A stretch of DNA of 64,000 nucleotides, from contig OZ316892.1 in the NCBI GenBank assembly GCA_973895155.1, positions 23,879,971 to 23,943,970 of the forward strand, given 5' to 3'. This DNA is from Marsupella aquatica. Its lineage: Eukaryota > Plantae > Marchantiophyta. Below, one piece after another: positions 1 to 24,853 of this stretch. Position numbers and translations under genes: made by a program. Each line of letters begins with the position of its first letter. The stretch's first letter is position 1. Under the pieces are notes generated by a model, which searched no databases, was not told where the DNA came from, and worked only from the letters and a program-made list of their open reading frames with translations.

Positions 1-789
1 CGACCATGCGCGTGTTAGTATTTTATAATAAAGGTTTAACTTTCAATATTTGTCTGTTTCAGAATGGATCCTACCGGAACTTCAAAGCGGAAAAGAGACT
101 CGTCTAAAGCTGCTTCTCGTAAGAAAACCAAGACAAAAATGACTCCCACGGAGACATCCATACTTGCATATCGAGGAAAGTCAATCAGAGAGAGAACAAC
201 GGAGACAAAGAGTATCCATCTCTTCGAATCGACTGAGATATCCAATTTTGGAATAGTCATTCGCAATGGGGCTGTCCGTCTTGTGGTGGCAAGAAATGAT
301 AAAGCTACAGTTTTGGAGAGATCAAAAATTCTTGGGTGTTTCTTTGAGAAGAACATGAAAGTTAAAAAGTGTACAGAGGGATTGGTTTTGCTAGTCAGCG
401 ACAACCAGAAGGAAGACAAAATAAGCATTTGTTTGGATCGAACGCAATATGTAACCTTCAATCAGCCCAGAATCGATGATCTACTAGGTGCAAGGCACGC
501 CTTGGAAAAGGTTACTAGTGTGGATATCCTTCCGATCTAGAGGGATCAACGGGAGATTTGATTTGTCAATACATTATTGACGTACTTGAGTTCCAGAGAG
601 TTCCTTTCAACCAGGGATTTTTCTTGGGAAAGGCCCCGCTAGTGAGCAAGGTTGAAGTATACTCGGTGGAGAATCTTCCGAAATTAATTACCTCAGCGAA
701 TGTCGGGGCTCTGTTTGATTCTTTCCTCAAAGAATATAGTGCTGTGAATATATTTAACAGCAAGTCATTTTTTGTTGAGACATCACGTT

Positions 790-1217
790 GTCATCTTGCA
801 CCGGACCACATCAAGTGCCGAGAGTGGAATCAGGATTACACAGATAGGCTAAAGAATTCACTCCTCTCTCATTCGGCTATAAAGTTTGAGAAGCGATGCT
901 GCTTTTTAGTCCCTGTGAAGTGGGTTCAGTCGGAGGCCGACAGAGATCCTGACTACAATGGGGCGCCCTACGATTCATCGCCAAAGGAGGAGGACATTAT
1001 GACCAGTCATTTCTGGATACTCGAAGGCCAGCACACAATAATGGCATACAAATTGCTGAGAGAGGACGACAAAGTCAGCCAAGTTGTACGAGACGCTTGC
1101 GGTACTGTAGAAGCTGTAATGTTTTGGGCAACGCTCAACAACGACAATAATGTTCATTTGATGGGATTATCGAAAGCTCTGAACCACTGTCATCAAACAT
1201 CAATGGAAGAAGGATAG
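790..1217 (+). pseudogene. ParB/sulfiredoxin-like domain
   Basis: CREWNQDYTDRLKNSL...FLVPV...HFWILEGQHTIMAYKLL fits the ParB/Srx pattern R..v..L..S...y.iidGqHR..A, with T in place of the conserved R. Confidence 0.6.
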
Positions 1218-2199
1218 TTTCTCACCATTGTACGACAGTGTCGTAATATCTAGAACTCATTTGGGCGGCCTGGATCACATTATCGTCATCCAAATTGGAA
1301 GGTATATAAATAACCCTCTTTGATCACATTATCGTTTAAACTGTTGTCACGCGAACGGTCACGTCAAGCTTAAAATTGTCATGTTTCCATTGTTTTTCAG
1401 GTATTTATGAGAGCTACGAGTTTTGTTTGCCCATGGGCTCAAATGGGGAAGAACAAAATGATGAAATTTGGAGAATTGGCTCCATTTCTCTTTACAATGG
1501 AGGACGAAACATTCAAGAAGTGGATGGAGGTCTACGAACTATCAAGGACAGGAGAGCTTGTAATTTACAACAGAATTTTACAGAGGGACGCCGTCAAAAT
1601 TGCGGATAATCCATGTGCTTATCATCTTCTGAAGAAGACGTTCCATTCTTGTCAAGGGTGCTCAGACTCGGTTCTTTGAAAGGCAATGGAATATATGTTG
1701 AGCGAAAGACTGTCTATACTCAAAAACCGAAGCATCAAAGTGAAATCTGGGAAGGCGAGGAAGTCCTCTGAGGCTCCAGTGTTGTCAACGACCAGCATGA
1801 GTTTGGAGCAATTATGTATAAAGAAGAAGACAAAAGTTGAGTTTGAGATTTTATTATTGAGTAAACTCAACGGGGATACATCCACCCGGACGGAGCTGAA
1901 AAGTCTGACAGATTCAGCGCAAAAATTGCGGGTCAACAAAATGATTGATCGCTTTAAGCTCGACAAGATGGTGCTGAAGCAGTTGAGAGATGCGTTGAGT
2001 GGTTATCTGAAGAAGTGTTTAAATGTAAATATTAGTAATGATATTTTGTTGAAGGAGATCGACCCGATATTCTACAGGGTGGTGGAAGGAATACAGAAAT
2101 CAGTTGATAGTCAAGGAAACCAACTAGTGCGGCCGATCGGTGAGAGGCTGAAATTGCGATCCCTATAGGATATACAAACTGTTGGGTTTGCAGACTATA

Positions 2200-2830
2200 T
2201 CATACGTGAAGACAAGAACCTTGCAAGCTTGATTTATTTTGATCCCTGTCCGCCAAATTGCTCATTCTATGAGGGGTTATTTTGTGCTACTAGCAAGATA
2301 GGGGCAAAACCACACCATGTGGTTATTATTGTAGCCTCTCCCGTTGAGTCTTACTTAATCAAACGGGAATTAGGGAAGTACACACACTACGTTGTTGTAG
2401 ATAGCCATTATATTCAGAAGTGGCCGAAGGAGAAGAAGCTTATTGTGACCTACGCTTTTCACAGCTTGGCCTTCAGCACAGTGGGCGATCCACAAGCCCT
2501 CGAGTTCCAATTGGTCTCCAAATATCAGATTGAGAAGATAGCCAATTTTGAAGAGAGCAGCGAGTTCGCGACACCTTCCCTAGAAAAGATACTTCCATTC
2601 TTTGAAAGTATTGTTAGTCAATTCGTCCAATGTGGGGAATGGGCTATATGCTTCGGTGAGGGAACGAACTTGATCCAGTGCTTAATGGTAAGTTTTGAGA
2701 TTTATATTTTGGGGTTTCGATTTAAAGATTATTTAGATTATTATACTCTCAATTAATATTGTGAACTAATTTTGGCTCTTTTTACAGGATGCTGGATCCA
2801 ATGTAAAATATTATTGCCCTGTGGCAACGC
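2200..2830 (+). pseudogene. Degenerate beta-class N6A/N4C DNA methyltransferase-like domain
   Basis: LIYFDPCP (motif IV-like, cf. LIYIDPPY) followed ~110 aa later by TPSLEKILPFFESIVSQFVQCGEWAICFGEGT (motif X/I-like, cf. PTQKP..L.ERII..SS..GD.VLDPF.GSGT). The motif order is that of the beta class. Confidence 0.4.
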
Positions 2831-3499
2831 ATAGGGAGTTGTCTTGTTTCTTGCAACACACCACGGCGACAATTGATACAACGCTGTCATTAATTGACCC
2901 AGTATGGGCTAGTATAGAAAAATGTATAGATAAATTAATGAAGTACCGTCCATCCGTAACTGCTCTCAGGGCTGATGTTTTGGATGTCCTCCACGAACAA
3001 GATATCCCTGATAATATTTGTAATCAATTATTGCAAGAGTATTCACTCTCTGAAGATTTCGATCGATTGTACATTCGACCAACGGAGTACCCTAGTGGGC
3101 CAATCCAAGGTAAGTTACTTTTGAAACCTCTTACTTTTTATTGCGTCACGCGAACATGCGCGTGGACATTCATAACATTTCTTTTCACGCGAATATGCGC
3201 GTGAGTCATTCTTATCAAATGATCTGATTTTATTCAGATCAAGTCGACTGCGGCTTCAATGTTGAGGATGTAGGGAGCAATGGTGATGCGGATGGTGACG
3301 CGGAAGGTGACGCGGATGGGGATGTCAATGACCAAGATCCAGAGTGGATGACCGATACGCAGAACGACGTCGGAGATTCCAACAATAGAGCAGATGAAGA
3401 GAGTGACGGAGAGGAGATGAAGGACGCTGAGGAAGAGGACGAGGAGATGGAGGGTTCTGAGGACGCTAAGGACTCTGATGAAGAGGCCACACAGGAGCC

Positions 3500-4140
3500 T
3501 CGACATGAGGTGGACCGAGAGGAGGCGGCCCGGCTGGAGGAGGCCCGGCAGGAGGCAGCCCGGTAGGAGGAGCTTCAAAAGAAGGATGCAGCCCGGCAAA
3601 AGAAGCTTCAAAAGGAGGCAGCCCGGCAGGAGGAGGCCAGAGAGGAGGCGGCCTGGCAGGAGGCGCTTCAAAAGAAGGAGGCGGCCCGACAGGAGGCAGC
3701 CCGGCAAGAGGAGCTTCAAAAGAAGGAGGCGGCCCGGCAGGAGGAGGCGTCCCGACAAGAGGCGGCCCGGCAAGAGGAGCTTCAAAAGAAGGAGGCTAAG
3801 AAGAAAAAGGCAGCAGCTAGAAAAGCAACTGCCGCGAAGAAGAAGGAGAAAGCCCAGGCTGAGAAAGCCCAGGCTAAGAAAGCGGAGGCTGAGAAAGCGG
3901 AGGCGGAGGCTGAGAAAGCCCAGGCTGAGAAAGCGCAGGCTGAGAAAGCGGAGGCCGAGAAAGCCCAGGCTGAGAAAGCCCAGGCTGAGAAAGCGCAGGC
4001 TGAGAAAGCGGAGACCGAGAAAGCCCAGGCTGAGAAAGCCCAGGCGGAGAAAGCCCAAGCGGAGAAAGCCCAAGCGGAGAAATCGGAGGCCGAGAATGCG
4101 GAGGCTAAGAACGCGGAGGCTGAGAACGCGGAGGCTGCAA
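3500..4140 (+). repeat. Coding low-complexity repeats (EAARQEELQKK units; 15-bp GAGAAAGCCCAGGCT = EKAQA units)
   Basis: Tandem arrays visible directly in the sequence. Confidence 0.95.
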
Positions 4141-5156
4141 GAGTCCTTTTAGTGACAGAGGGAAATAGGGCCAAGGCGGAGAGTGTGGCGGTTGAGAGGC
4201 TGCTGGCCGAGAGGATGGCGGACGAGACCGCAAGACCGGAGAGGGTGGAGGCGGAGAAGTTGGAGGCAGAAAAGGTCGATTCCGCAAGACTGGAGAGAGA
4301 AGAAGCCGCAAGACTGGAGGCAGCGAGGAAGGAGGCCGAGAGGGCCAAGGATCTTTTGCTTATTCCTGAGGCACAATGTCTACCAAAAATAAGGCTAAAT
4401 TTGAAGAAGCCTTCTTCACCTCAGTTGCAGTTAAGAAGAAAATATTAGACTATTTTCTTCGACCGGAGTTTGAATTTAACAATCCACCCTTAAGTACGGT
4501 CTCATTGGATGATTGGAATAAATATTCACCGGAGCAGCTCCGAGTCCAGGCAGTCCTTGCTTTGCAATATTGGAAGGGTCTTTTGATTACCGAGGAGAAG
4601 ACTGCCACTGCATCCAGAATGGAGACAATCATCAATAATGTCCGCTTTTCCGAGAATCGAGTGCAAGACCTGAGAACGTTTTTGGCACCAGACTTGGCTC
4701 AAGTCGTTAAGAGACTAACAGCTGACTTGACACGACCGGGTTTGTGGTCTCGACCTCGATATATTGCAGAGGTCACTCACGTAGAAATTGTGGCACCGGA
4801 TATTTTGGAATCGGATTCCCAGATTGTGGAATATTTGAATCAAATGCCACAACCATTTGAAGGTCTTCCCGCCATGTCACTCCAACCTTCGCAAACTGGT
4901 CCGGTGGAGCGATCACTGCGGTCTCGAGGAGGGCTGAAGGATGTTGTTGCGATTGAGGCACCCAAGAGATCAGCTGCAAAAAGGCCGGATCCACCCAATC
5001 CAAAGGTCATTTGCAAGCTATAAGCTTAAAGTTTCTATTATAGACGTCATTATTTTATTATTGATTTGTTATTGTTTCTGTTTTCTGAGGTATAACCCTT
5101 AGGCTACAACCTCAGTACGCTATTTGAAGGCGTACTGAAATCTCTATTTTTTGCAG

Positions 5157-5850
5157 TTTTTTGAAAATTTGGCTAGTCGAATAGATCAATGCCTTGATCC
5201 TTCTAAGGATATGGAAGAGCTATTGACCAAGTTCTTACAACACTCGATCAAGAGGAAACATATGATGTGTCTAAGACCGCGTGAGTTGCTCACCAATGAT
5301 ATAATTAACGCTTATTTGAGTTTTCTTGAACTGATTCTCGATAGAGTTGGAAACTCAGACCTTGTCAAATTCTTCCAAACACACCATTTTGAGCTTCTCT
5401 CCATGGATCCTACCATTTTTGACGAGGAGAGAGTAGCTTGGACAAAGGAGTTTTCGCTAAAAATCAGTGAATACGACAAACTGGTCTTTCCAGTACACAA
5501 TGCTTTTAAGAACATTGGTCATTGGTAGTCTTGTATCCGAAGGAGAAACGGCTGGAGTACCTAGATTCTTTAGTTCATAATCGACAAAATCCCGGGGTGC
5601 TAGATATTGTTGGGAAGTACTACACCGACAAAATTGGCTGGAGAACTGGTGTCAACTTGGATCTCTCAGGTTGGGAACGGATATATCGGAATGATATTCC
5701 TCACCAGAGTGACGGCCACAATTGTGGTGTGTTTATCTTGAGATACGCCAAATGCTTGTGTCAAGGAAACAAAATTAATTTTGTCACGGATCAAATTGAG
5801 AAATTCCGTAGGGAGATAGTCTTGTCGTTATTTGACATGGACTTTCGCAA
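5157..5850 (+). pseudogene. Ulp1/SENP-family (C48) SUMO protease domain, frameshifted
   Basis: LRPRELLTNDIINAYL, FPVH..GHW, EYLDSL and PHQSDGHNCGVFILRYA give the H-D-Q-C catalytic set. Frameshift near 5525. Confidence 0.9.
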
Positions 5851-6199
5851 GCCAACGTCCGCAAGTAACCTAGTTACCGGGATCCGTGCTACTATGATTG
5901 ACATTTCTGACGAAATTCCAGCACTGAATGACCGTCTTGTACAAGTAATACACTTCATTTCAGTGTCTCTCTTTGTAGTCACGCGACCGTTCGCGTTATA
6001 AACTTATTTTCATTTCTTAATGTTTTACAAAAGCCTATCCCGAAACCCCCTGATCGAGTATCGAAGGCACCAGTCCGAAAGTCCGGTGATCGTCCAAAGG
6101 CGGAAAACAAACAGACCGTTCTAGTACGTTCTCCAAACCCTGCGACACAAAAATCATAGGTACAGATGGCGTCTAATCCATTGGCAAAGAAGTCACCGG

Positions 6200-8090
6200 T
6201 TCAGAAGAGACTTGTAATTTTTGATCTGAATCGGGTACTTATCTGGTCAGAGAAGATTAGCCCTGGGATGCCCATTCGGTCAAGGGGTGTGAGACAGATG
6301 CACAAGGTTATCTATCCAAGGCCTGATTTAATGGAATTTCTTGAGAAGGTGGCAGATCTATACGACATTGCGATCTGGTCGTGCATGTTCAAACGGAATA
6401 TTCTATCTTGTGTAAGGCTGATACTTTGACCCGAAGTTTTGAAACGTATTAAATTTATATGGGGACAAGAATCAACTCGACTTATTGGGAAGAATAATAA
6501 TGACATCCCCTTATTTGTCAAATGTCTCTCCGACATTGCCGCCGATATTAAAGATTAAAACATTGAGAATGTCATTCTTATCGATGACGTTGCATATAAG
6601 ACGAGCCTTAATGACTTCTATTCATCGCTGTATCCCGATGCATATTCTGGGCTCGATGATGACCTATTTTTTAGAAAGAAACTATATCCATATCTATGCG
6701 ACATGTCAATTGACAAGTTGACATTCTGCAAGCTCCTTAGTGGATATGGGATTCCAACGTTCTCTCAAGAAAATCTTGAGAAAGATTATATTGATAAGAC
6801 GAATCTTTGGAGGAGAAATATGATCATTCGTAATCAGAGGAATAAAAGACCATTTAGAAAAGTTTGACGAATTTATGAAATACTTATCTACCGAAAAAGA
6901 CCGTGCTATAGAAGCCCGGGATAAGTCCAATAAGTAAACATTTATTGTTTATTATCAATTATTATTTATAATTTGATTGAAATTGAACTTTATATTTTGG
7001 GAGTGACGCGCCCGGTCACGTGGTTGTTTGCAATTGCATAATATGAGAATTGAATTGTTCATTTACAGGTGTCTAAGTGGAGCAGGTCGCGTCAACTTCT
7101 AGTTTTAGGACTGGAAAACTTCCTATGCTCTGTTTCAAAATATACTCCTCAGCTCAACTCGACACCCGAAATTCGTATCGGATCTCTATGTGTCGTTCCG
7201 AGGCTGCATCTTCATGATCTTATAAAATTCTGTTATGATCATTTTGATGTGATGGTCTGATCTATTCTCGACGATAAACTGGTTTATCAGATACTTTCAG
7301 AAGTGTTGTCAAGCATCAACCTGTCGTAGCTGATATATGTGTTCACGCGGGATCATTGCTGGAATCTTGGTTATGTGAAGAAAAATTATAAGACTGTTGT
7401 CTTCAAATCTATCGAGAGACTACGTGATATGTTTCAAGATTATCGACCAGAGAATATAATCCAGATTGATGCCTGTCCTTCCCATACATGCCAAACAGCT
7501 GTATGCGGATTATTGTTCGCTAAGTTGTTTCAAGGATTCTTGAGATTCTATTTTGAGAATTTCAATGTAGGGATCTGGTCCTCTCTTGGGAAGAACCTTT
7601 TAGATCAGATTTTAGCATCTATTTTTACTGCGATGGAAATGGACTCATTTAAGTATATTTGGGATTAGTCTCATTGTTACTTATGCGATAGGGTGACATC
7701 AAATAAGCGGATATTTTTGAAGTGTTTTGAGAAGGTTGGAATTTATACGAAGGCGTACCTGCAGAAAAATATAATGCTTATCAAATCCGATGCATTTCAT
7801 GCTTGTTTAGATCCTGTTGTTGGATCATTATTTCCGCCCAAATATTTTGGGTCGGTCGATGACAGTTTTCTGATTAACTTGCTGATTCCATATCTTAGCA
7901 AGCTAGCCAACTCTTGTGAGCCGCTTGTCATTGCCAATGGAAGAGATTATCCAGATTGGTCAGTTAAATCTATTTTTAGAGATTATGATTATAATCATAC
8001 TCTATGGGAAGACCCTGTGATTCAGAGGCATGAAGATAGATATCTAGTAGAGCAATTTAACAGACGCTTCCAAAATAATAGTCGGCATGA
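6200..8090 (+). pseudogene. Three tandem FCP1/NIF-like HAD phosphatase domains, increasingly degenerate
   Basis: KRLVIFDLNRVL...IYPRPDLMEFL...DIAIWS...IWGQE...ENVILIDD. Second copy QLLVLGLENFL...PRLHLHDLI...FKSIERL...ENIIQIDACP. Third copy NVGIWSS...YIWD...FLKCFEKV...NIMLIKSD. Confidence 0.75.
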
Positions 8091-8561
8091 GATCAGATTA
8101 ATTTGTATTGTCATTCTAGAAACTATTTGTAAACTCCTTATATACTGGTTATCATATATAAAGGATCTCAAAGATTTATTTCTCTATTATTATTATTTGC
8201 GTGAGCATGTCTCTTGGTCCCGTCAAGTTGGATTGGTTAAAATGTGACGTTGCAGTCATTTTCAAGGTTTCACACGCAGCCACGCATCATGCCGCCCCCT
8301 TTTTATTAAAATAATAATATTTAGTGATTTTCGGAATTTCCAAAGTTTGGTTTTCCTTAAGTTGGGGTTAATAGGGTCTTTTAAATTCAATTTTGAGACT
8401 TATAAGAACATTAGGGTCTTTTTAATCCAATTTTTAGATATTCCAAGAATATTCCAACTTTATAAGGGTTAAAAAATAATTTTTTTCTTACATTTTAGGG
8501 GGTCCGAGGCCTAAAAATGTCGCAGGCGATGGGGAGGTCCCCATATAGTGAGACCCCCGAG

Positions 8562-8633
8562 TCTTTGACTTGGACTCCAGCTTGGATCGAAGCTGGGAAG
8601 GTGTAAGCACATATTAAGCATCACATCCAAAAA
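8562..8633 (-). pseudogene. 72-bp copia integrase C-terminal (SH3-like) remnant between elements A and B
   Basis: Reverse strand reads FGCDA-YVLTPSQLRSKLESKSK (with a small indel), continuing ...TDYSHLRIFG from 24854. Confidence 0.85.
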
Positions 8634-9724
8634 CCCTGGCCCCTCAGTCCTAGTAAAATATCCAGACCCCCCTGCGATCGGCCTCCCTCTTGGTGCCCCT
8701 TCTTAATATTTTTTTGGTAATTTAAATTTCTCTTGTTACTTCTAAAAATCCACATTTTGACCTTTGTTTATATCCTTTAGTTTTTATAAAAGGAGAAATT
8801 GAGATAATTTAATTCACCTTGTTCGGTTATAAAAAAATTAGTTCAAAATACAAGGAAAACACACAAAGCTAACTATGATGAAAATACTTGTATACTTTTA
8901 TTATCAAAGTCTCTTTGGTATAGAGAATTCACTTATGTATTTTCTAGAATTGTATGAAAGAGAACAATCATGCTATTAATAACTAGAAGTAAATATTGCC
9001 GAGCTGCTCTAGCAACCTTGTTTAAATTTTAGATTTCCTACATCTAGCCTCCATCGTTATTAGATGCTCTGTTAAGCAAAGCTTTGCAGGCCAAAAAATT
9101 TGATTGTAAAAGTGAGCTGGCACAACAACACACATATGCTTAGATATTTCAATCCTAACTATCCTACATAGCCCCTTCACACCTGACTCTACAATAGGAA
9201 CCACAACATCACAAGCTTCTAAGCCTTATCAAATTCAGACTCATCATCACAATGAACTTCAATCACTTTGGCTTCATCCCCTACAGGTTTCCTTTGTGCG
9301 GGAACTTCAATCACTTTGGCATCATCCCCTACAGGTTTCCTCTTTGCAGATCTCCAAATTCCTTTTCTCACTCTGCCTCTTGGTATTGCAGGGCTTCCAA
9401 GATCACGTCCGCACTTCTTGTTGACTCGAGTTAACACCATTTTTTGATTGTAATAGACCACAAGCTGATGTCAATAACCTGATCCACAATGGACCAAACC
9501 ATATTATATCAGCAATATGAACTTAGCAAATCAAAGAATTGAAATGACATACTATATTGAAGAGTGCAAGAAGTCACGTTGTAGGTAGGGTTTACCGATG
9601 AATTGCAGATGAAATGAATAAATTATGTACCCTTCCTTACTGCCTTCCCTGCAACCAAACAATGTTTTTCCCACTATGAGATGGAAGTCTAGGGTAGGGA
9701 TGTACCTTGGGCAACTCCACCTGA

Positions 9725-10269
9725 TTACACTATGTTGTTCCTTACAAAATTGTCGAGGGCAAGTACATCATCTGGATGTAACTTAAAAACTGAAGGATAC
9801 AAGGGATCAACTGTGAAATTGACTGTTGATATGACACAGTCCAAGTCGATGGTCTGAGGATCACATATATTGTAGGCAAATTTATGCCTACGAGTGCCAA
9901 TAGGAGTAAACCAATTGAAGACAACTTGACACCTTGCTTCAGAACCAGGCCTATCTAGCAGATCTAGTGCTTCTCTTGATCTGGCAATGGTACCCCCATA
10001 CTTCCGATGTATGCTCTGTACTCTACCAATCCACCAACCATATTTTGGACCAGGAGTAGAAGATGCAGGTACTGCTTCACCTCTTGGCCTTCTAGGATTC
10101 TGCACCAACTATTTCTTTTTTCCCCCTTGACCCTTCCCTTTTGGTGCTCTAGAATTGGCCTCTGTGTTTTGAGTAGTTCTGACCTCTTCTATTTCATCCA
10201 AAAAGAATACCCCACAATCACTACCGACTGTCATGAACATAGTTGCAACTCCTTCACGAAATGTGGGTT
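9725..10269 (-). pseudogene. C-terminal part of the element B transposase, separated by the 10270-14532 insert
   Basis: Removing the insert and one TSD copy joins ...SIYFNNLVDKP in frame to TFREGVATMFMTVGSDCGVFF...WWIGRVQSIHRK. One internal stop at 10109-10111. Confidence 0.8.
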
Positions 10270-10574
10270 TGTGACGGGGTCCCCGTCTTGAAAGGTCACC
10301 ATTAGGTGTTATTGGAAAGATGCATGTAAATAAATAAGCCAATATACACAATAGTTTTTCAATTTTTTTAAGTTAATCATCCCGGTGTGTGTTCATGTTG
10401 CTCTGGAGGGTCGGGGCTATTTGAACCCGGGAGGAACAATTTTTTTAATTGACCCTTTTCTCCCTTGGGTCTTGTCGTTGTGGGAGAAGAAAATTAGGCA
10501 TCTTAAGGGGATACCACCCATTAATATTTGGAGACCCCGGCAGTTTTTCTTGGCCCTGGTATAATATGGCAGAG

Positions 10575-10770
10575 GAGCCCACCAGCCGTGGGGCGCGAGA
10601 CGGAGGGCCGCCCCGCGAGTAGGCGGAGCCCCGAAAGGGTCTGCCGGGGCGTAAGCAAGGGGCAGCCAGGGAGGAAGAGCCCGCGAGCCGTGGGGCGTGA
10701 GACGGAGGGCTGCCTGGCGAGTAGGCGGAGCCCCGAAAGGCTCTGCCGGGGCGTAAGCGAGGTGGCAGCC
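10575..10770. repeat. GC-rich tandem duplication, ~104-bp unit x2
   Basis: GCCGTGGGGCGYGAGACGGAGGGC...GAGTAGGCGGAGCCCCGAAAGG occurs at ~10584 and ~10687. Confidence 0.85.
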
Positions 10771-11136
10771 GCATGGAAGTTGACTCTGGGTAACACGGGG
10801 AGGATCGGGAATTCCCTCCCCTTTGTTTTTTTCTTTGGTTTTTTTTTTCTTTGCTTCCTTCTCCGCGCGCGCAACTCCTTTCTTGGCCGAAGCACTCTGC
10901 CCTCATTTCCAAAAGCAATTTCCCCAATGTCGGAAGCTCTCTACCAGCTCTTACACTTATTTTTGAAGCTCTTTCTCATGGTCAATTGTTGGGGCTTGTG
11001 GGCATGATTCTTCCGGGCATTAGCGGCAGCAGCACGGAGTGGCTTCTGAGGGAATTGAGGGTAATTGATTGATTGGGATATAGGGGCCATTTTGGGCCAA
11101 GGGATTGACATTGCTACGGGTGACGGGATTTGGTGA

Positions 11137-13025
11137 TTGAGAATTTTATTCCTGGATGCATGGATGCTGGATCAACCGGAGTTTAGTGCGGCACGCGTTC
11201 GGAGATACAAGGCTGCTTACCGTGACTACATTGAGACATTGATTGCAAGAGAGAGAGAAGAGAGAAAAGCCACGATGAGAACTGGGTTGGCGGCAAGTTC
11301 CACACCGGTGAGTAGGAAGATTTTCCGTCAAATTTATCCCAAAACCTCCACCAAGGTGATGGACGATTGTAGGAATATTTTTCAAGCCACCGGGCTCACG
11401 GAGTTCATGAAGGTGGAGATTACAATCCCTGCGGGGAAGATTTGGAACATTGAGACCGGAATGGAGTTACGTATGGAAGGAATCTACTTTGAATGTCTCC
11501 AACGGGTAGTGCCCCATGTGGAGTTAGCTAAGCTCCTGTTTCTGGAGAACCAGCAATTCTCATTCACACCCCGGAACATAAGGGGAGAGCTCACGTTGAC
11601 GATGGTGGCCAGTTGGGTGATTAATCCCACCTCCACTACTTCCATTCCTCTTTCCGCTGTCAAGGATGCTGAGCACAAGGGATTTATGGCCAAGATTCAT
11701 CAACGGGTCCTTGGTAACGTGCAATCAGGGGTGGTGAATGGAGAGCATTTCGTGGTAGCTATGGACATCAAGAACTATCCAGCCCATGTGTACGGATGGT
11801 GGTACTATGGGTTGAAGAAGCTATTGGACGCCGATCCGAGAGTGTGAAACCAGGTGGGGCTGTACACTTGATGGGGTCATTTTTGCTGGCCAAAACAGAA
11901 GGGTGGATTGTTTCCCCGGGACAAGAAGACTCTGGATCATCCCTTACCACGGAAATCAGGAGTATTGCCACTACCATCGTGGGGAAACTAACGGAGGGAT
12001 CATCGTCGGCGGTTGGGGATGATAATAGAGAGGAAGAAAACCAGGATGAGGACTCCACATTGGAGTGGCTTGAATCACTTGTGGGAGATCCGAAGGAGCC
12101 CCTGGTCTACGACATTCCTGATGTCTACTTGGCAGAGTTATGGGAATTCCGGGAGGGAGTCCATGAGGGACTCAAGCTAGTCCACGCATTGAGAGATTCT
12201 TTCAAGCAGGCCACCGCCAGAGTAGAGACTTTGGAGCAGAGTGCCCTGTCTATGAAGGAGGTGATCAAGGCCAAGGAGGAGGCCATTCATGAGAAGGTTA
12301 AACTTCTCCAAGCAGCTCACGTAGAGATCTCCAACTTGAAAGGAGCCTTGTCCACCAAGGCCAAGAAAGCGGAAGAGGTTGGAGTATTGAAACAGGCATT
12401 GGCCAAAGAGAAGCAGACTTCTGGAGAAGTGGTGGAGTTAAGAGCCCAGGTGGGAGCACTACGGAGTCAAATGGTGATCTTTGAGACAAGTGCTAAGAGG
12501 AGTGAGGCCTTGAGTCTGGGGAAACGGAAGAGCCCCTGCACACCTAGCTCCACACTTTCCCCGGATTTGGTCTCCAGGGCCATTAAGATGGTGGTGAAGG
12601 AAGTCAGTGGGAAGTATGGACCCCTGTTGGATGCAGCCAAGAAGAGTCAAGAGAAGAGCAAGAGCTTAGAGAAGAAGCTCAGGGAGGTACGTAAATCGTT
12701 ACGAGAAGCTCAGGTCAACACAAGGACCCCGGGGATGCCACCCCGATCTATCACCCCTAGGACTCCCATGGCCACCGGGCAGGTTTTACCGTTGGAGTTG
12801 CGGTCCGGTGAAGAGGCGGCCTTATGGAAGGACACCATTTGTGAGGGGTACATTAAGGCGTGGCAAGCCTTGGCCAATTTGAGGAAGCAGGGGAGCACTA
12901 GCACAAGGAGTACCCCGGTGAAGAAGAAGAGGAGTGAAGTGGCACTCACTCCAGTGGAGAGTGATGAGGAGGCCCACTCACGGGGCTCAAGCCAGGGCAC
13001 CGTGAGTGAAGAGGAGGAGGATTAG
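11137..13025 (+). CDS. Two overlapping ORFs (236 + 409 aa, probably one frameshifted gene); retroelement accessory-type protein with a long coiled coil
   Basis: Long open frames overlap at 11796-11847. E/K/A-rich heptads from ~12150. No gag or pol motifs seen. Confidence 0.5.
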
Positions 13026-13612
13026 AGTGGTCGTACGGACGTGGTTGTACGGCCCCTTGACTTTTCAACTTTTTTGTGAGGGGTCACTCACGGGCTTGTT
13101 GGAAAGAGCTCGCGGAGCTGATTCCAACAAGAGGTGGCGCTCCTCAAACGGAGCCAGGATGAGCAAGTTAGGGCCCGACGAAGTTGGGTTTATGGGATAC
13201 TGAAATGGCCATAACTTGGTCGTCCGATGTTTGTTTCAAGAGCGGTTGAGTGATTCATGATCAGGAGGAGGAGGGCTATCCAGGGGTGAACTCAGAAATG
13301 CAAGTGGAAGGGTGTCTAGTTTCGGCCATTGTGGGGTTCCTTGCAATTTCACGGTTCACGGAGTAACGTTGGGGCGCCGTCGAAGGCACCATCGGCCCCA
13401 TTTTTAGTTTAGGGTTTAGAAGCATGTGTGCGCCGCATGGTTTTAGTTTAGGGGTTTCTTGGTAAAGGGTTTAGCGGCGTTGCTAGTGTAAGCCGCCATC
13501 GTTGTGGCTCCGAAAGGGGTGCTTTGGTGTGTTTTTTTTGGTATTTAGGGGGAAAGCCCCGGAGTAGTAAGGGGGGGAACTCAGCGTAGTGCTTTGATGC
13601 TTTTGAGTACTT

Positions 13613-13950
13613 CAATCTATTCATTAAAAGTGAATTATTATTCAATTTATGAACATTTGGGTAACAAAAAGTGTACATTTGGCTTTCAAAAGTGTACAAT
13701 TGGACCAGAAATAAAGATGCTTGCCATCAAATGTACCACCATGTTCATCCTTTGTAAATGAACTAGGATGAGACTCCTTCTAGTAAAGATCATTTTTGCA
13801 CCCTCAAGTTTACAATTGATCATTTAGGTGTAGAGTAGTATACTATATTGTACCTTTTGGGGTTAAAAAGTGTACATTTGGAGACCAAAAAGTGAACATT
13901 TAGAGGCCTAAAAGTGAACAAAATAAAATACACTTTTAATGAATAGAGTG
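13613..13950. mobile_element. Small AT-rich MITE-like element nested in the TG..CA insert
   Basis: 17-bp inverted repeat TCTATTCATTAAAAGTG (13616-13632) / CACTTTTAATGAATAGA (13931-13947), with internal AAAAGTGTACATTT repeats. No clear TSD. Confidence 0.6.
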
Positions 13951-14532
13951 ATCGCCCGACTAGCTTTTGTGAGTAGCGCACCGATTAGGTGAAGTTCAAG
14001 CCAGAGTAGTGAGGTGGAGAACGTAGCACTTGTCTCAGGGAGGCAGGAGTTGGGCAGACGGCAGGAGGCCGGGTTGTCCTTGCATGTGTTACGGGAAACA
14101 CCAAGAGATATGGATTTGGCTTGAGTTCCAATATTTTGTGTGTCACTTGTTGTTGCTTGTGTTGTTTGTTTTCCTCCCCTAGTGCATGTGGTCAGTTTCG
14201 TTGTGGAAACATTTGCCCTTGTCACTAGTGTTCAAACCTTATTGTAAACGTTTGTATGCTTGCCCATGAAAGGGGGGTGGTGACAACACTCACCCGGTGG
14301 GCATGAGATGTAGATGGTAGGACCAGTCCCTTGGACTTGATCAAAAACGGAGAGACCAGTTGGTAGACTTGATCAAAAAGTACACTTCCGGGAGCGGAAT
14401 CAAACATACTCATCCTTAGGTGTGAAAATCCTCCAAATAGCGTCCCCTCCACGACCCCGTAATACGATACCAACGGTTTAAGCGAAGAAAAGTACAGTTT
14501 GCACGTATTAATCGTTGGATAGGCAAGTGACA

Positions 14533-17500
14533 GGGTTTATCCACCAAGTTATTGAAGTATATACTCTGCTTCACTCGGGTCAGCCGGTCCTTACTGAGAT
14601 GAGGGTTCCCAACAAGCTGACTTACAAACGTACTTTTGTAGATCTCTCATCCATTATGAGTGACAGTTGGACACACTTCCTGTATGGGCGCCCCATAAAC
14701 CAAGTTTGAATACATTATATTCATAGTAGCCTCCAATTCAGCCCCAGCCACCTCTAAATCTGGGTCTACCTCCCTATGGACCTCCCTCTCCTCGCCAGTA
14801 GGAATGACAGTAGGGATGATACCTGCCTGTAAGCTTGGGCCAGACATTGGGGCTGACATTGGTGTAGATGATGATGCAGTTCCAAGTACATTTTCAGTGG
14901 AGGTGGTTCTAGGGGTGGACTCAAGAGGTAGAGTATCCCGCACATCTACCAAGGTGTCCACATTAATATTACACCAGCCACCAAACTTGGTGCCTTTCTC
15001 CTCAACTTTCCATGGTGAATTCCACCATAGTTTGTTGTTGGCAGATGTTGAAGGATTCATTTGCAATTCAGTGGCTGCAGTTTGAGCCAACTTGAACCCC
15101 TCTTGCAAAGCTAGGACGACATCTGCATCAGTCTCAATCCCTATGTAATCTGATTGGTCTGCCTCTATATCAGTCCCCTCTTTTGCAGGATGAAGAGTCA
15201 TCCAAATGCTCTTATGCTTTTTATGGCTCTGTCCAACACCCATCATTCCCTCTGCCAGATCCATTGCAGCCAACCTATTAAGGGAGGTTGCACACTCTAT
15301 TAATTCTGCTATATCATAGTTCCGCTCATTACCCCGCATACCCTCTACCTTGGAAAAAAACTGTTCACAAGCATCTGACCCGGTCAGATGTAATGGCACT
15401 GGCAGATGACGGAAATTAGTCCTAAATTGAATTATCAAGAAGACTACAAAATGGACTAACATCTGTATGTCCAGGAAAGTCTGCATAGGGATGCAGCTCT
15501 TGGTAAAAGTTATACTCTGTGTGTTACCTCCCACTGCATGATTACCATGGAAGCACCACAGACGCCACAACCTGAAAAAGAAACCCACTTTCCCACATAG
15601 GACAATTCTCTCTCGCAAAGTGAGTCAGGTATTCATAAATATATCCAAGTAATCAGCACATATCCCTGTATAAACCTCAGTCCCAAGTGCCAGCTCTACC
15701 TTTGCATCCTTGCGCAATCGTAGCATCTTTAGCATGGAACTCACTTTGCGGCTACACAGCCTTTGTGCACTTGCCCAATTTTTCCTGTCTGCACGTCTTA
15801 TGTCCTCCTCATTAAGACCATGCTCTTCATGCTCATATAAACGGTAGACATGTCTCAAGTGACTCAAGTTCGCCACCTGCGACCCTAATTTTAGGATCCG
15901 GGCAGTAGAATCCAATGGATTAACTAGCTTCTTCCCATTGTGGATAAAATCCTGATCATGTAGCCCTGTTGCATGCCTCAATGTTCCATCATTGGTCATG
16001 GTGTGAGTCAGTTTCCAACCTTCCCACATCAGGTTTGGTGCCCTTGGCCCTGGTACCCCTCTTCCACTGTAGTCCTCAAGCATGAGTTTTCGTCTTTGCG
16101 AATCCCCATCACTTGCGTGGCCTAGTAGAGGCCCCCACCTTCTCTAGACAGTGGGTGGTCCACATTGAATCCATGTCACTCCATTGTCGCCTGACCCAAG
16201 GACTGTCAAACGTATTACAGGTTGACGTGCCCAGTACAGGCAAGCGAGGGAACCCCACAGCAAGAGGATTCACTATCACACATCTTGCAAGGTGCCCTAC
16301 CCTTGAATTATCAAAAGCACCTATAATGTTGTTGAAGCCAACTTCTCCCTACCACACCTCTATTTGCAATCCAGTCTTACATTCATGGTCAGTTTTGCTT
16401 CCACAAAACCCAAGAAGTGTATCATCTTTAGGCAACCATCTGCAAAGAATGCAAGATGTCACTACTTTAGTGTATGTTCAAAGAACTCCACGTACTTGAA
16501 CTAGAGAAGTCATTGAATAGCTTTGACAAATTTTCATAAGTTGTTGAAGGCAAATTACGTGACTGTTCGCTTTGACATAGGTCTCGTCCTCTGCCAGAAA
16601 GTAGGGAATTGGGCCTGATATATCCAGGCGGTTTTTTATTTCAGAGTAGATCTTTGCAATAAACTTGAATTGAGATTCATGGATCCCTGCTCTGAACACT
16701 GGCATACCTCTCCTATCTCGTTGTAGGGTGTTTAAACTAGGCCCTATTCTGTTAGTGGCAAGGCAGTCAACTACACGACGCCCACCATGCAAGAACAATG
16801 TTTGGCATAAAAGCTTTGTTCTTGGCTTAATTATATCTATAACCTTCCTTCTCTTTGTTCAAGTTCGAAGTTATATCTGACAACATATCCCATAGAGCAC
16901 CCCTTCCACCAAAAGCACCCCTTTTGTGTGCTAAAACTATTGATTGGCAAGATTTCAAGACAGATTCCTTGTTTGGACCCTGATAGTTGAGGCAAACCTC
17001 CCTCACACTTGGAATTGAGGACTTAAACATAAGCAATTTATGGCTGAGGAATCTCTGTAACTTTCTCTCTCTGCAAAGAGTATTCCTATACACTTTAGCT
17101 TGCCTCTGAATCTCAAAAACGTTGAGGTACCCTAGGCGCCTACCCTTCCCAGTCCCTCTCAAACCCCGTTTCTCAAGGGCTTTATCTTCTCTTGATACCC
17201 TTTGTCTAAAGTCATCTAATGTTTTTATGGAAAAACATTTTGAGCATGTCAAATCTTCAAAACCACCCCCTTCTTGTGAAATTCGCCTACATTCGGAATG
17301 TCTGAATAAACCCATGATCACACAAGTCTATTGAGTGGACAAACACTACACCTCTACCCTGACCAGAGGCTCTGCAAACCATTCCCCTCTACTTTGACTT
17401 GGTCATTCAAGACTCCCTTGATAGGCCTGGATTCTGAACCATATTGTAACTCATCCCACCATAGACCCCAACACAAAAGTGAGAAGTTATCAATAATACC

Positions 17501-18710
17501 TCTGTCATTGTCTGTTGTAGGCACTCGAGAGGAACTGCTGGAAGCACCTGCAGCGGACGAACGGCTCAAAAACCCCTGGATTGTCCGTTGTTTGACATCC
17601 CTCCCATCCACAGTTCGGGGTCTTCCAGGACGTCCTGACATGACAGGCTCATTTCTTGCAGGCCTCTGACTTTTTGTCACGTAATCAAGATGACTCAACC
17701 CACTACAATGAGCGTTGAGGTTGGACTCCAAGTTCCGTTGCTTTGGTATCAATGACATGTGGCATAGACAAAAATTGCAGAAAAGCTTCAACCTCTGCAG
17801 CTCCACCGGGTCCTTCTGGACATCACCCACAACAGTAAATTATCTTGACCGACACTCTGGGACTCATTGACCTTTGCAATTATGCTCAGATGCTGGTCTA
17901 GTATGGCTCTATCGCTCATACTAGTAGCAAGAGCCCTTCTTGAAATCTCCCGTGGGTCCACAGTTTCCCCCTGTTTGATGCAACACAGGCTGTATGCTTG
18001 GATGAGCGCAAATGCTTGCTCTTGTAGTTTGTGAAAGCATTGTTGATGAATATTTTATCCATCAATCCTCCCTTTGGCCCCTCCACCCGAGTGTCACACT
18101 CACAACACTCAAGATGTCCCCTTGGTAGGTTGTCTTTGTCCCAAGTTTTGACCTTCCATTTATGGTCACCACATTTAATAGACTCCATGTAAGCCAACAA
18201 CTTCTCCACAGATGATGTCCATACTCTCTTAAGATCATTGGACATCACTTCAGACAGAAAGGTGACTTGTAGATCAGGCTCAGGCTCAAGCTCAGGCTCG
18301 GGCTCAGATGATGGAGCCTCAGAATCTCGACTAGGGCCCAATTTGGGTTCGTCCATGATCGGAGAAGTGGCACGCTCGTCACTCTCAGTCCAGGATGGCC
18401 CATTTGAGGCATTGCTACTTCAGAGGACTTGATGCAGTCCTACCAACACATTCTGAATGGGAGCATCACTACCATTCACGGGGATGATAATGATCTTCCC
18501 CCCAAAATCCTCAATGAGATTGAGTTTCTCCCATTTTCTCTGCATTCTTGTATTGAGACTGACATCAATAAAGTCAAAGTCAAAGTCAAACTGTGACTCC
18601 AACTTTAGTCTGACATCAGCAAAATATTTGCCTATGAGGTAGCTATATGATGACACTGGCTTCCGCTCCCCACCTTTGGAGTCTACTTGAAATAGTGTGG
18701 TGGGCGGCAT
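14533..18710 (-). pseudogene. P-element/THAP9-like DDE transposase, main part (stops, frameshifts, at least one intron ~16442-16558)
   Basis: GPSLNTL; FLAEDETYVK (D1); GHASDGDSQRRKLM (D2, ~16110); QDFIHNGKKLVN (DxxH motif); DRKNWASAQRLCSRKV (P-type insertion region); LTGSDACEQFFSKV (E). N-terminal C2H2-like fingers CCECD..HLRSSKH and CNFC..HCSGLSH. Confidence 0.8.
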
Positions 18711-18899
18711 TCTATCACACCCTCTTTTGTAACCCTATGCACCTCACATGGGCCTGCAAACATTTGAGAATACAATATGACCATCAACACCATGAGGGTC
18801 AACTTCCTATGTTTTCATTAGGCAGACAACATAGGTTCTACTGCAAAATGATGAGTGTGGAAGAATAAATGATAAGTCTGAGGGATAAGATTAACAGAA

Positions 18900-21800
18900 A
18901 GAAGCTAGCAGAGGGATAAGATTGACAGAAAGAAGTCAGAGGGATAACATGGATAGAACAACAGAGTATTCTAGCCCAACAGACGTTTGGAGACCGCCTC
19001 CACTGGAACAATCCCACGAGGGCCTTGCCCCATCCCGACCATTTCTCGTGGTGATTGGCTTTGCAAGGTCCATTGTTGCTTTCTCCGAGAATTTTGGGTG
19101 GGAAGGGACGTACCCTTTGCATGCAAGGATTCCAATTTTGGCGTAAGCACAAGAGAGCATGGGATCCGCACATGACCATTTAAGCTTGTCCCATTCAAAG
19201 CTTGTCCCGGTCCCAGTTAATGTGCTAGGTCCATGTACGGTCGGGGCCAGGCCCACACTCCAATCCCTCTCCTTCAATAGTCAGTTGGGCTTTGCAGAGG
19301 GTCAATTGCAAGCTTGAGGGGGGCAAAAAGGATATCCAATTTCTCCACCAAAAGGATTCTAGTCCTTCCCAATCTACAAGGGCTGGACAAGGTGTTACAC
19401 CAAATGGCTAGGATTAGTTTGTTGAGATTGGATGATGAGATCTTGCATGCCAAGTCTTTGGAAGTGTGTCCAGGCTTTTAGGAAGTCCCAATCTTCTTGG
19501 AAGTGTGCACAACAATTTTGGAAGTGTGTCAAACCTTTATGGAAGTGGTGTTCAACTAAATCTTTATGATCTTTGAGTCCTTTTTCTCTCCTTTTTGAGC
19601 TAATCCTTTTTGCATCCTTTTGCCCCCCTCAATCTTGCAATTGACCAGAGTCACTATTGATACCAGCAAAGAAGCTGAGACTAGACCACCCAAGCCCTAT
19701 TACCTAACAGGCTCTAAGCACTCAACGCCCCCTATATACACTTTTTGGGCAACCTGCTTCAAAATTAATAGAGTGCTAGACTGCCAGCGACCAAATCTAG
19801 CAGTCTCCAATGGGGGCATTACTTCCCCATGGTCTCTGATTAATTTGATGGGCCCTGCAAACAAGCTAGTTCTAAATCTACAGCGGAAAGTGACAAAGCT
19901 GAAATGATAACTTACCTGAGAACACACAATGCCCTGTACATTATCCTTTGATAACAGAAATGCAAAATACCAGGAAAGAAAGCACTAGTAGGGAAAAATA
20001 TTGCTTGGCTGTACCTTGGAGTTCAAATGGCAGATCAGTACAAGAGAGTGCTCGCACGTAGAGAGAGCACGACGCAAATGCCCTGAAAAACATCATAGCA
20101 TTTCAGAACCAGGAAACAACATAAACATATATAATGCAAGCTTGTTACTTTGCAAGTTCTTAAAACTGTACATCGATCTATCCAGTACATAGATCAATCA
20201 TTAAACCAAGCCTTACCTTTTGGTTTGCTAGATAGGCCGACTCATCATCCACGGGTCCATCAACTTTTGCAATTATCCTAGGACGTAAAAACACCAGAGT
20301 TAGTTTTAAGTATTGGCAAGTCCATCAGCTCCACAATTTTTATGGCATGCCTTTCAGATACAATGATAGGATTGTCATCATAGTTTCTGGCATAAGAAAC
20401 TCAGACTGCCTAAACCAAGGATGACATAAGAATTGATGAGACTGATGAACACATGATAAGTTAATTCCAAAATGAGTGTTGGATCAACACCATACACTTT
20501 TTACAAAATGACCTATCCATGAGGTCGTGTAAGCCTAAATTCCATCTAGACCACAAAACGCTGCACCTAATGACATACCTAGGGACCGTCATTAAGTCCT
20601 AACACAAAGGGGTCAGTGTTCCAAAGCTGGCACACTTTCCACTAACGCTTTTTAGCAAAGACATCATTGTCCTTCACATCTGCATCAGGATCTACATCGC
20701 ATGAAGGACATTTTGCATCTAAAGCATGCATGCAACCTGCAGCAACAGTGTACTGTACGCCTTCTACCTCACGCGTGAAAAGAATGGACACAGGGTTCAT
20801 ATACTTTTCCCACATAGACACCCATCTCATCCTAGGGGGAGGAGCAGCCCCAAAAAGGATGGTAACGGGTAAATCCGTTCGAAACAACCCTAAGGCCTTC
20901 AATTTACAACGAAGCCTTATTGCCTTCTCGTAAAGAAGACCTACTGATTGGCTTCAGGTGATTACCATTGCTGTACCCCTGTGTTACCTTGGCGACAGAA
21001 GACTCTTTGACTCTAAACTTCAATCACAACTTGCACAACACCTAGTCCAGTCAGCTACCTGCACGCAAAAGATATATTTGAGTCATTAAACCCAAAATTA
21101 AAGCACGTACAATAAATCAATCAGCTACAGATGAAGATAATATGGAAGACCAAAAACCAGTACCAAGAGAATGTAAATGAAATACCAACCTATTGTCTCA
21201 CGACTGACTTTTCCAAAATATCAAGGCTAGCTCGCGCTGCTGTGTAATCCTCAACCAAGAACTCTTTTGTGGCAAGCAATGCATACCAGATCAGTATGAT
21301 TTAGATTAGCAACTACTGATTTCAACAATGCAGTAGAAAAGTTGAAGCAAATTCTCTAGCAATAGCATAAACTAAGCTAAGCCAAACAAATCAGGCAAAC
21401 ACTACAACTTTGCGGAAACAGCCAAGGAAAAGAATGTACCTTCACTTCCACCTTTCGGGCTTCTTGACACTTTTGGCAGGATGACTGTGCCCCAACGCCT
21501 GAATGCATAGGAATGCTTGGACGATGACCTTAGTCTGCAATGTCCTTCACCCCCGATGCCTCGCGCGGTGCCTGGAAAAGACAACAATCCATTGCCTTCA
21601 GATTGCAGACAAACACAAATTTTAACTACTTGCACCGTCGAAGCAATCGATGCAAAAAAAAGCTCTACAAGTGCGGCCCATTAATGAAGTTATCTATTGT
21701 TGACTGTAAATGTCCAATTCTAATTCTAGTACTGCTAACCTTTGCTTCCACCTTGTTGTCTTGTTGTTGCTCGCCTCCTATTGATGGAGTCCGCAAGCGG

Positions 21801-23400
21801 GTCCGCAAGGCCTTCACATAAAAATTGGATGGATCCCTAAACCATAGTCACACAAACAAATATAGTAAGCCCCAAGTGGGGCCCCAAGACCTTAAAAAGG
21901 CGCAACATATATGGACACAACATCGGGCACAACATGCCTATGTGCATAGGTCGGGGGTGCTCACCTTCACTTTGGTCCACCTTCTTGCCTTGTGAGTGCC
22001 CCCTCCAATCACTGTCTCCAAAATTGAATGCTGCAGCTCGCAGCTGCAAGTCTGCATCACAATGTACAGACCTCGGTACAGACCTAATCAGGATGGATAA
22101 TCTCAAACTGATTTCAGCATTAGATTAAAAAAGGTCGGATCGTAGCTCTAGCAAAACATTGAAGCACAACTGTTTGGAAAGATGAATTAACTGAAGGAAA
22201 ATAGTAAACCTTCAATCGCACCTTCGGGCCTTGTTGCGGCCTCGTCCCTCCAATAAACTGAGCCTGAATGCTGAAAAACAGAACAATCCCACAGATCACC
22301 TCACTCTACAATATTGGGGCTCCCCATTGCCCAAAACAAACAGCAATCCGGCCCTACGTACAATATTATCTACCCATAGGATTGAAGTGCTTGCAAAACA
22401 AGAAGCATTGATTCAATCTCTTCAAAACAATTGCTACACATGCAATCCCTCTCCTGAAGTGTGTGGCCCAATAATTTTACAGTGTGGTCCAAAGGTCGGA
22501 GGTGCTCACCTACCCACCTTCTTGTCTACTTTCCGCCCCTTCTCCAATTCATGGAGCCCGCAATGCCAAGAAAAAACCTGAATGGACCCCTACAACATAG
22601 ATTGAGAGAAATTCACAGTTAGCCCAAGACCTTACAAATGCCAGACATGGACAAATGTAAATGTTGAAAGTTCAGGGGTATTTACCTATGCTTCCACCAT
22701 TCTTGTCCCGGGTTCTCATCTTGTTGCCGCTCCCCCTCCAATAGATATATGGAGCCCGCAATGCCAATAAAACTGAATCAATCCCTCAACCAGACTGAGA
22801 AAGATTTAAAGTTTGTGGAAACCCTTAAAATGCCAAAGAGATGGACAAGAAATGCAAATGTGCATAGGTTGGTGGTGCTCACCTTCACGTCCACCTTCTC
22901 GCGTTGTGAGTGCTTCCCTCTGATTGACGTCGCCCCCAACACCCCAAGGAAAACGTACTGACATTAGGGTTGTAGATGCTGAATGCAAGAACCGGCCAGA
23001 AAAATTAGTCCATTCAACCTTTGTGCAACAAAATTGGATTGAAAGGCCGAGGTTGGCCTCCGCTACAGCATATGATAGCGGACAACAGTGAGAACGAGTC
23101 CGAGCAACATCTAGAAATTCAAAAGCTGAAAGTGGACTTGGATGGAGTACAGCGCACCTATCGGACTTGGATGGAGTACAGCGCACCATTGCTTGTCGTA
23201 GCTCAAGATGCTCACCTTGTCTTATTGATGTCCACTCAAATCAATGGAGCCACCAATGCTCAAAGCAACAACGATCAATCCCTGCGCCCAAACGCTGACA
23301 AACCAATTTTAAGTTTGGCCCAAGAACTTAAAAGTATGAGACTAGAAGAAAAATGCGAATGTGAATAGGTCCACAGATCACCTTAACTTTGGCCTTCTTG
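18900..23400 (-). pseudogene. Second, uncharacterised decayed multi-exon gene within element B
   Basis: Minus-strand exon-like fragments (e.g. 19700-19915, 20590-21058, 21190-21290) bounded by splice-like sites. No family recognised. Confidence 0.35.
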
Positions 23401-24271
23401 TCTTGTTGCCGTCCACACCGTTCTCACCGACACAAGGCCCGAAGACAGCCGACCCCACACAAACCCGCAAGTGATTAGAGCTCTGGAGGGACAGAGCGAT
23501 GGCGGGAGCGATGGTGGACAAGCAAAGAGCGATGGTGGACGAGCAAAGAGCAATGGTGGACCAGTGACAAGCGGTGGTGGACGAGCGATGGTGGACAAGC
23601 TCTCACGCAGGGCAACAAGCAACAAGCAGAGCGACGAGCGGAGCGATCGAAGGACCAACGAGCGGAGCGATGAGCAATGGCGGGCGACAGAGTGAACCAG
23701 GCAAGGGTCGACAACAGAGTGACCAGGAATCAGGACGCAAATGCAGTGTCGAGTGAGGGCAAAAACTTCTAATGGACACGGATTGACTCATTGGAGGGTG
23801 GAGATCTTCCCTCCCTCGGATCCAATGGCCAGCACTTTGCATTAAAGTGCTTTCTAAAACCCTAAGCCCTAATAGCCCGCCCAAAGGGCACCGTACTAAT
23901 GTAAACCCCCCCTAAATCCCCGAACCCCTGCCAATTCAAACTCCCAACCCTGACTTAAACTTGACCACACATATACTTGCCAAGGTTACAATAGGCAAGT
24001 ATTTACATTTCAATATTCCTCCATCCAATTAGGTGTTGACAAGTGGGCCACTAATACCATGACGCGTGGCACCGGGGAAAAAACAACCCTTCCAGAAATT
24101 TAAGATGTATGCTATTTCATAAGTACCTATTTACTTATATTTGAGTTTAGGAATAGAATTGCGGGTTGGGGTCTTCTAAGTCAATTATAATTATTAGTTC
24201 AAAACGAATAAAATCCACCCTTCGAGCGTTCGCATGTCCTACCCGTATTAGTTAAGACTGAGGGCCCAGGG

Positions 24272-24815
24272 AACATAGTGTCAAATCCAGGTAGTGATGA
24301 CTGGATTCTAGATAGTGCATGTACTTTTCATATTTGCTCTAGGAGAGATTTTTTCAGTTCTTACACGGTTTCCAATGGATCAGTGTTGATGGGAAATGGA
24401 ATCCCATGTCAAGTTGTTGGACTTGGATCTGTAAGATTTCAAATGTTTGATGGTGCTGTGAGAACATTGAGGAATGTGAGACATATTCCCAACATGATGA
24501 AAAATCTCATTTCCCTTGGAGTTTTAGAAGCAAATGGCTATCAGTGGAGTTCTGCTAATGGTGTCCTTCAGGTTTCAACTGGTACTAAAGTTGTATTGAA
24601 GGGAAAGAGACATAGCAATCTATACATTTTGGATGGTAGTGTAGTTTTTGATGAAGCCAATGTAACCTTATCTCATGAGGAGACGGCCCGGCTGTGGCAC
24701 TTCCGTTTGGGCCACATGAGTGAAAAAGGTTTGGCTATTCTTCAGAGAAAAGAATTATTTTCTAATTTGCAATCTTATACTAATAATCTTAGAATATTGT
24801 AAGTTGGAATTTTGC
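24272..24815 (+). pseudogene. Inverted copia protease/GAG-pre-integrase fragment captured inside the end of element B
   Basis: DDWILDSACTFH...LWHFRLGHMSEKG. Near-identical in reverse complement to ~25440-25957. Lies between two copies of the element B right end (ending 24271 and 24853). Confidence 0.9.
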
Positions 24816-24853
24816 ACGTCCTACCCGTATTAGTTAAGACTGAGGACCCAGGG

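Follow-up and report, generated by a model that had tools for sequence, protein, structure and literature searches.

Experimental proof that a transposon can escape silencing comes mainly from the VANC system of Arabidopsis, in which the VANC protein of VANDAL Mutator-like elements (MULEs) binds motifs lying in the non-coding parts of its own element, introns included (PMC5735166), and some VANC genes (KAONASHI) carry a Ulp1 protease (PMC13317346). For algal ParB-methylase proteins, self-binding has only been proposed: the Ectocarpus element Sola1-1_Ec32 encodes a 1104-aa accessory protein with ParB and N4C/N6A-methyltransferase domains (PMC12477816), and the cargo of Bostrychia Plavaka elements (PAG2, PAG3) includes ParB-like and N6_N4 methylase domains, with inverted-repeat arrays beside the ParB-like gene as proposed targets (bioRxiv 10.1101/2025.02.11.637652). 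We analyzed a 64,000-nucleotide stretch of the liverwort Marsupella aquatica (assembly GCA_973895155.1, contig OZ316892.1, positions 23,879,971 to 23,943,970 of the forward strand), hereafter the window. Its bases 1-8561 are the right part of a multi-copy, dispersed, cut-and-paste DNA transposon with terminal inverted repeats (TIRs), called element A. As an earlier note made from the sequence alone had claimed, a ParB/Srx-like domain, a methylase-like domain, a Ulp1 protease and three NIF/FCP1-like domains lie co-linearly on the + strand of this single transposon family. New here is an 18-bp self-complementary, CG-rich palindrome, present in five copies in the introns of the gene and in none of its exons.

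The cargo gene comprises seven exons on the + strand, with about 2,445 codons. By its predicted structure, exon 1 (64-1301) encodes a basic N-terminus, an unassigned domain and the ParB/Srx-like domain (about 753-1199), and exon 2 (1401-2687) an unassigned helical region followed by a beta-class amino-methyltransferase-like domain (about 2136-2687). Exon 3 (2788-3109), joined in frame, probably contains the end of the methylase-like domain and a linker, and gave no family match in domain and profile searches. The translation of exon 4 (3238-5005) consists of an acidic tract, charged repeats that are likely to form a coiled coil, and an unassigned C-terminal part. Exon 5 (5157-5944) encodes the Ulp1/SENP-type protease, exon 6 (6034-6933) the first NIF/FCP1-like unit and exon 7 (7069-8100, the 3' end of its frame not being fixed) units 2 and 3. 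Five of the six exon junctions are GT-AG and in frame as they stand. Bases 1-62, which end in an acceptor-like TTTCAG (57-62), resemble the last part of an upstream intron, in which case the transcript could begin to the left of the window. Four relatives (P0001, P0009, P0033 and P0065) start at roughly the position of 64, with Met and a run of basic residues, and position 64 may therefore still be the gene start. The copy itself is decayed, as the earlier note had recognized: it contains 11 in-frame stops and, among its best-supported differences from other copies, single-base insertions or deletions at 521, 4418, 5507 and 6844, the first three coinciding with frame changes in the translations, while 6427 and 7258 are sense codons in other copies.

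An AlphaFold model of the read-through of 519-2687, a range that leaves exon 3 outside, reached a mean predicted local distance difference test (pLDDT) score of 79.9 with 52 aligned sequences; single-sequence prediction gave a pLDDT of 30 only. When the model was compared with 48,161 chains, residues 79-227 matched PadC (Z 8.1, root-mean-square deviation (rmsd) 3.2, 98 aligned), KorB (Z 8.0), SerK (Z 7.6) and sulfiredoxin (Z 6.5), in agreement with the ParB fold suggested for 790-1217. The predicted structure of this part is thus the ParB-N fold of the ParB/Srx superfamily. Structural neighbors of the homologue P0065 in the Atlas gave template modelling (TM) scores of 0.50-0.60 to ParB_N clusters and also included clusters from eukaryotes (fungi, where 31% of members carry DUF3723, and sponges and molluscs; score 0.95), so that a direct bacterial transfer into this lineage is not required. 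Viral structure matches of the model include phage methylases and ParB proteins. No useful sequence match to the ParB-like or methylase-like parts was found in Pfam, PHROGs, NCBIfam or the PDB, and the family profile compared with one phage ParB gave a probability of 0.6. The motif LEGQHT, by which the ParB-like domain had been noticed, is specific to this copy and not a feature of the family: among 18 stored proteins (some from the same cluster, two chance matches having been removed) the position reads GGQHT in 14, DGQHS in three and EGQHT in one.

The methylase-like part (model residues 537-723) retrieved only beta-class or MT-A70-type methylases in the top 20 rows, including M.MboIIA (1g60; Z 14.3, rmsd 3.1, 156 aligned), CcrM (Z 13.5), the bdelloid N4CMT (Z 12.0) and M.PvuII (Z 11.9), and the 10 Foldseek matches at E up to 0.001 were all methylases (CcrM, E 5.4e-5). 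The model therefore predicts the permuted Rossmann fold of beta-class amino-methyltransferases, which had been proposed for 2200-2830. In these enzymes the catalytic motif IV has the general form (D/N/S)PP(Y/F/W), and motif I, which binds S-adenosylmethionine, reads FxGxG. The domain is nevertheless likely to be inactive, since the Pro-Pro-aromatic motif occurs in none of the 11 rows covering the site (22 aligned), which typically read DSTL, DSSI or DGTI; of the 12 rows that cover motif I, 11 have the truncated form F(G/S)x(G/S). The suggestion that this part modifies DNA was not supported, nor was DPCP as evidence for a methylase, because within the stretch encoding these residues the present copy lacks 18 bases that copies in runs X3 and X1 have; there we read D-P-S-S. 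Alternatively, the domain would be catalytically active as an N4-cytosine or N6-adenine methylase through an atypical active site and would mark the DNA of its own element, which has been proposed for the algal proteins. This would suit the clear predicted fold and the Asp that 10 of the 11 rows keep at motif IV, and the host group does possess a bacterial-type N4-methylcytosine methylase, the beta-class MpDN4MT1 with motif TSPPY (bioRxiv 10.1101/2021.02.12.428880). This explanation is nonetheless quite improbable in view of the motif counts, and inactive methylase domains occur elsewhere, in DIRS1 retrotransposons and in METTL14 (PMC4738411).

The Ulp1 protease was identified by Pfam (Peptidase_C48, E 3.3e-12), and its His, Asp, Gln and Cys align with those of SENP2 (E 2.5e-11), which agrees with the earlier reading of a complete catalytic set. 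As judged from these alignments, it is the sole domain of the gene that keeps a full active site. The three NIF/FCP1-like domains were likewise recovered, both by Pfam (unit 1, E 1.5e-10; units 2 and 3, E 3.8e-11 in two stretches; above the Pfam cut-off) and by alignment of unit 1 to unit 3 (E 7.5e-16) and to unit 2 (E 0.001). The phosphatase motif of NIF/FCP1 domains is DxDxT, of which host proteins also have a DLN variant. At its place this copy, to which the motif reading is confined, has DLNRV in unit 1 and GLENF in unit 2, and the motif strand is missing in unit 3; DxDxT itself is found in none of them.

The assignment of 1-8561 to a single dispersed element is based on an even contig depth over 1-8100, a deletion joint and the divergence of contigs at 8561. 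Four public sequencing runs were compared, their summed contig depth being taken as a sign of multiple copies and not as a copy number. Contigs covered all 30 bins of 1-9000 in three runs and 28 bins in the fourth; the depth was roughly even over 1-8100 (uniform in three of the four runs) and jumped at 8101-8700. One contig connects 195 to 7551, which corresponds to a deletion in another copy. The uniform depth counters the possibility, raised in the earlier note, that the domains belong to separate unrelated insertions. Beyond 8561, unrelated sequence was found in 32, 69, 77 and 5 contigs of the four runs (agreement 0.34-0.54), many of them MITEs (miniature inverted-repeat transposable elements). 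Some contigs have a different sequence entering 8562, resembling an empty site. The diverse loose ends at 8561, seen in all four runs, delimit a 15-bp right TIR (8547-8561, + strand). The right subterminal region (8370-8561, + strand) is shared with MITEs and matches at 93% the right part (43604-43798) of a related 297-bp MITE on the + strand (43502-43798), which has both 15-bp TIRs (14 of 15 bases matching) and an exact flanking 8-bp target duplication. The element continues to the left of the window, as copy depth is still high at base 1 and contigs pass over the window end; its own left end thus lies outside, and 1-8561 contains no transposase gene. An assignment to CACTA elements, suggested by a CACTA 10 bases inside the right end, was ruled out by the terminus at 8561, the left end of the MITE, which lacks CACTA, and the 8-bp duplication. 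A viral origin of the locus was also rejected, on account of the spliceosomal introns, the TIRs and the lack of any capsid or polymerase gene in 1-8561. Directly to the right of element A, 8562-8637 is another repeat of very high depth, which was seemingly the insertion target of both element A and its neighbor, element B.

Word searches recovered one relative of the ParB part (55%) and one of exon 2 (50%), and searching 1.84 billion representatives with a profile yielded 48 matches of no more than 489 residues, at E up to 0.001. The open frames of the relatives (275-454 residues, roughly 25-55% identity) end at the same intron positions, and unspliced relatives stop at the same two intron positions. 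The number of matches, their diverged open frames and the shared stop positions point to a long-lasting coding constraint on the family. Five of the 22 clusters that were looked up carry a species name, in every case that of the liverwort Calypogeia fissa. Gene models P0065 and P0010 bridge exons 1 and 2. No database relative bridges to Ulp1 or NIF, and no long fused relative was found among proteins of 995-2840 residues, which is weak evidence. Relatives were also absent from viral contigs, metagenome contigs and phages, in scans sensitive to close relatives only.

The palindrome lies in introns at 1348-1365, 3147-3164, 3186-3203, 5980-5997 and 7005-7022, and a sixth copy, cut off by the start of the window, occupies 1-14 in the probable upstream intron; introns 2 and 4 have none. 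At up to 5 mismatches, the five sites fall in the introns, which make up 764 of the 8561 bases, and there is no site in the other 55 kb of the window (shuffle mean 0.07). A scan made without a consensus returned nine palindromic sites in the window, five of which were the intronic ones. The introns are rich in CpG, with an observed/expected ratio of 1.55 vs 0.58 for the window. On DNA, beta-class methylases work in dimeric form, for which a two-fold palindrome would be a suitable target.

We tentatively propose, at somewhat less than even chances, that the intact gene likely encoded one large protein, a self-binding anti-silencing factor predicted to recognize the intronic palindromes of its own element. 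The layout would comprise a docking half (ParB-like and pseudo-methylase), a long spacer, a SUMO (small ubiquitin-like modifier) protease and degenerate phosphatase modules, which together would find their own element and alter the chromatin there. In such a protein the ParB-like and/or pseudo-methylase part, probably dimeric, would recognize the two-fold symmetric palindrome, and the pseudo-methylase may grip or shield CG sites without methylating them. The tethered Ulp1 could then take SUMO off chromatin or silencing proteins in the vicinity, and the NIF-like units would chiefly serve for binding, possibly to the phosphorylated tail of RNA polymerase II. The same anatomy would also suit a transposition cofactor or self-regulator, for which TnpA of En/Spm is the model: internal binding would join the ends or tune the element's own expression, and Ulp1 would act on the transposase complex rather than on host silencing. 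The palindromes would fit a DNA-bridging dimer, and the long charged repeat region also speaks for such a role; but the palindromes are intronic and not near the end. At up to 5 mismatches, neither 8100-8561 nor the MITE, whose target duplication is clean, contains one, and we consider this role unlikely.

Several points weigh against an anti-silencing factor encoded by one fused gene. The ParB match, with Z 8.1, stands at the edge of the tool's meaningful range. The nucleotide-binding motif of ParB is GxxR, and its Arg is missing in all 18 proteins; moreover, in ParB the ParB-N fold binds nucleotides, and DNA is read by the helix-turn-helix. The palindrome consensus and the scan thresholds were chosen post hoc, the sites having already been seen, and in four of five cases the palindromes sit 34-46 bases from the acceptor, so that a role in RNA or splicing fits too. 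The sixth junction (6933 to 7069) keeps the frame only with the weaker acceptor at 7085 or on the assumption of one more lesion, and the fusion claim rests on exon phases, since no stored protein covers both the methylase-like part and Ulp1 or NIF. This junction and this lack of a bridging protein would be expected of two or more separate genes (ParB-methylase-like and Ulp1-NIF) or of alternatively spliced products. Such a division is improbable: no stop or intergenic gap beyond decay-type lesions separates the exons, five junctions are in frame, and both halves lie on the same strand with the same palindrome in their introns. In the proposed reading, the exons would be joined by splicing into a single transcript. 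Finally, a variant tally among copies over bases 64-700 (5 of 20 synonymous) showed no excess, with little power. A near-neutral tally in the N-terminal part and a dead copy are what neutral captured fragments or unrelated nested insertions, similar to Pack-MULE cargo, would produce, but this origin is very unlikely, given that 48 diverged homologues keep open frames and have intron positions in common, and given the uniform copy depth.

Other features were observed in the window. Element B (8634-24853, 16.2 kb) has 15-bp TIRs, an 8-bp duplication and a second right TIR at 24257-24271. Its TIR agrees with that of element A at 9 of 15 bases, and both elements have an 8-bp duplication. It contains unassigned open reading frames (ORFs) at 11137-13025, a 347-bp inverted-repeat element (19300-19646) with a 4-bp flanking repeat, and a broken transposase-like gene on the minus strand (about 14650-18400), which gave no Pfam or PDB match and which looks P-like only by its motifs. 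A P-like family in a bryophyte would be worth a separate study. A 665-bp MITE (48296-48960) with an 8-bp duplication has a TIR matching that of element B at 12 of 15 bases. Fragments of Copia-type retrotransposons and a 504-bp inverted duplication lie at 24212-26904, and fragments of a MULE transposase and a SWIM domain at 49493-51722 on the minus strand. On the + strand, a Bles03-family ORF (E 1.4e-19) adjoining a weak F-box ORF is found at 45535-46882, and a host-type leucine-rich-repeat gene at 60698-62626; a host-type gene at 29954-32076 on the minus strand has tandem receptor-like kinase domains, as read by eye.

The earlier note overstated the novelty of the combination, because ParB plus N4/N6-methylase accessory proteins had already been described in algal DNA transposons (PMC12477816). 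The literature searched, which lay outside subscription journals, Repbase and supplements that may hold such elements, describes neither the complete fusion, nor a land-plant example, nor palindromes located in introns. A bolder reading, which we regard as doubtful, is that a land-plant transposon has rebuilt a bacterial ParB/parS-like system within its own gene, in which a ParB-pseudo-methylase would dock on intronic palindromes, shield CG from host methylases and bring a SUMO protease and polymerase-tail-binding modules, the element thereby staying active. The idea is testable, since the family combines a short candidate site for binding, a structure predicted with confidence and one enzyme whose active site is complete. 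It also suggests that a methylase fold can persist for a non-catalytic job.

Among the known systems, phage ParB-methylase proteins, M.MboIIA, CcrM, M.PvuII and the bdelloid N4CMT resemble the gene in predicted fold and domain order, but the identity to the phage, bacterial and bdelloid methylases is only 8-15% and the catalytic motif is absent here; MpDN4MT1, too, belongs to the beta class. The VANC/KAONASHI system also combines an accessory protein carrying Ulp1 with short motifs in its own introns and non-coding parts. It differs in belonging to non-TIR MULEs, in its asymmetric motifs of 8-9 bases and in its demonstrated activity, which here is inferred, and no VANC-type domain was detected in this gene. 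PAG2 and PAG3 share with element A the ParB-like and methylase domains as transposon cargo and the inverted repeats as candidate targets; they are, however, separate genes of EnSpm elements, with SET and 2-oxoglutarate oxygenase partners and tandem arrays beside the gene, whereas here single palindromes lie in the introns. Compared by description, Sola1-1_Ec32 is also a transposon accessory gene with a ParB-like domain followed by an amino-methyltransferase domain. It encodes 1104 aa, with Ulp1 unmentioned in the part of the report consulted, in contrast to the approximately 2,445 codons, lost catalytic motif, land-plant host and 8-bp duplication found here. The family extends the design of ParB plus methylase cargo to land plants.

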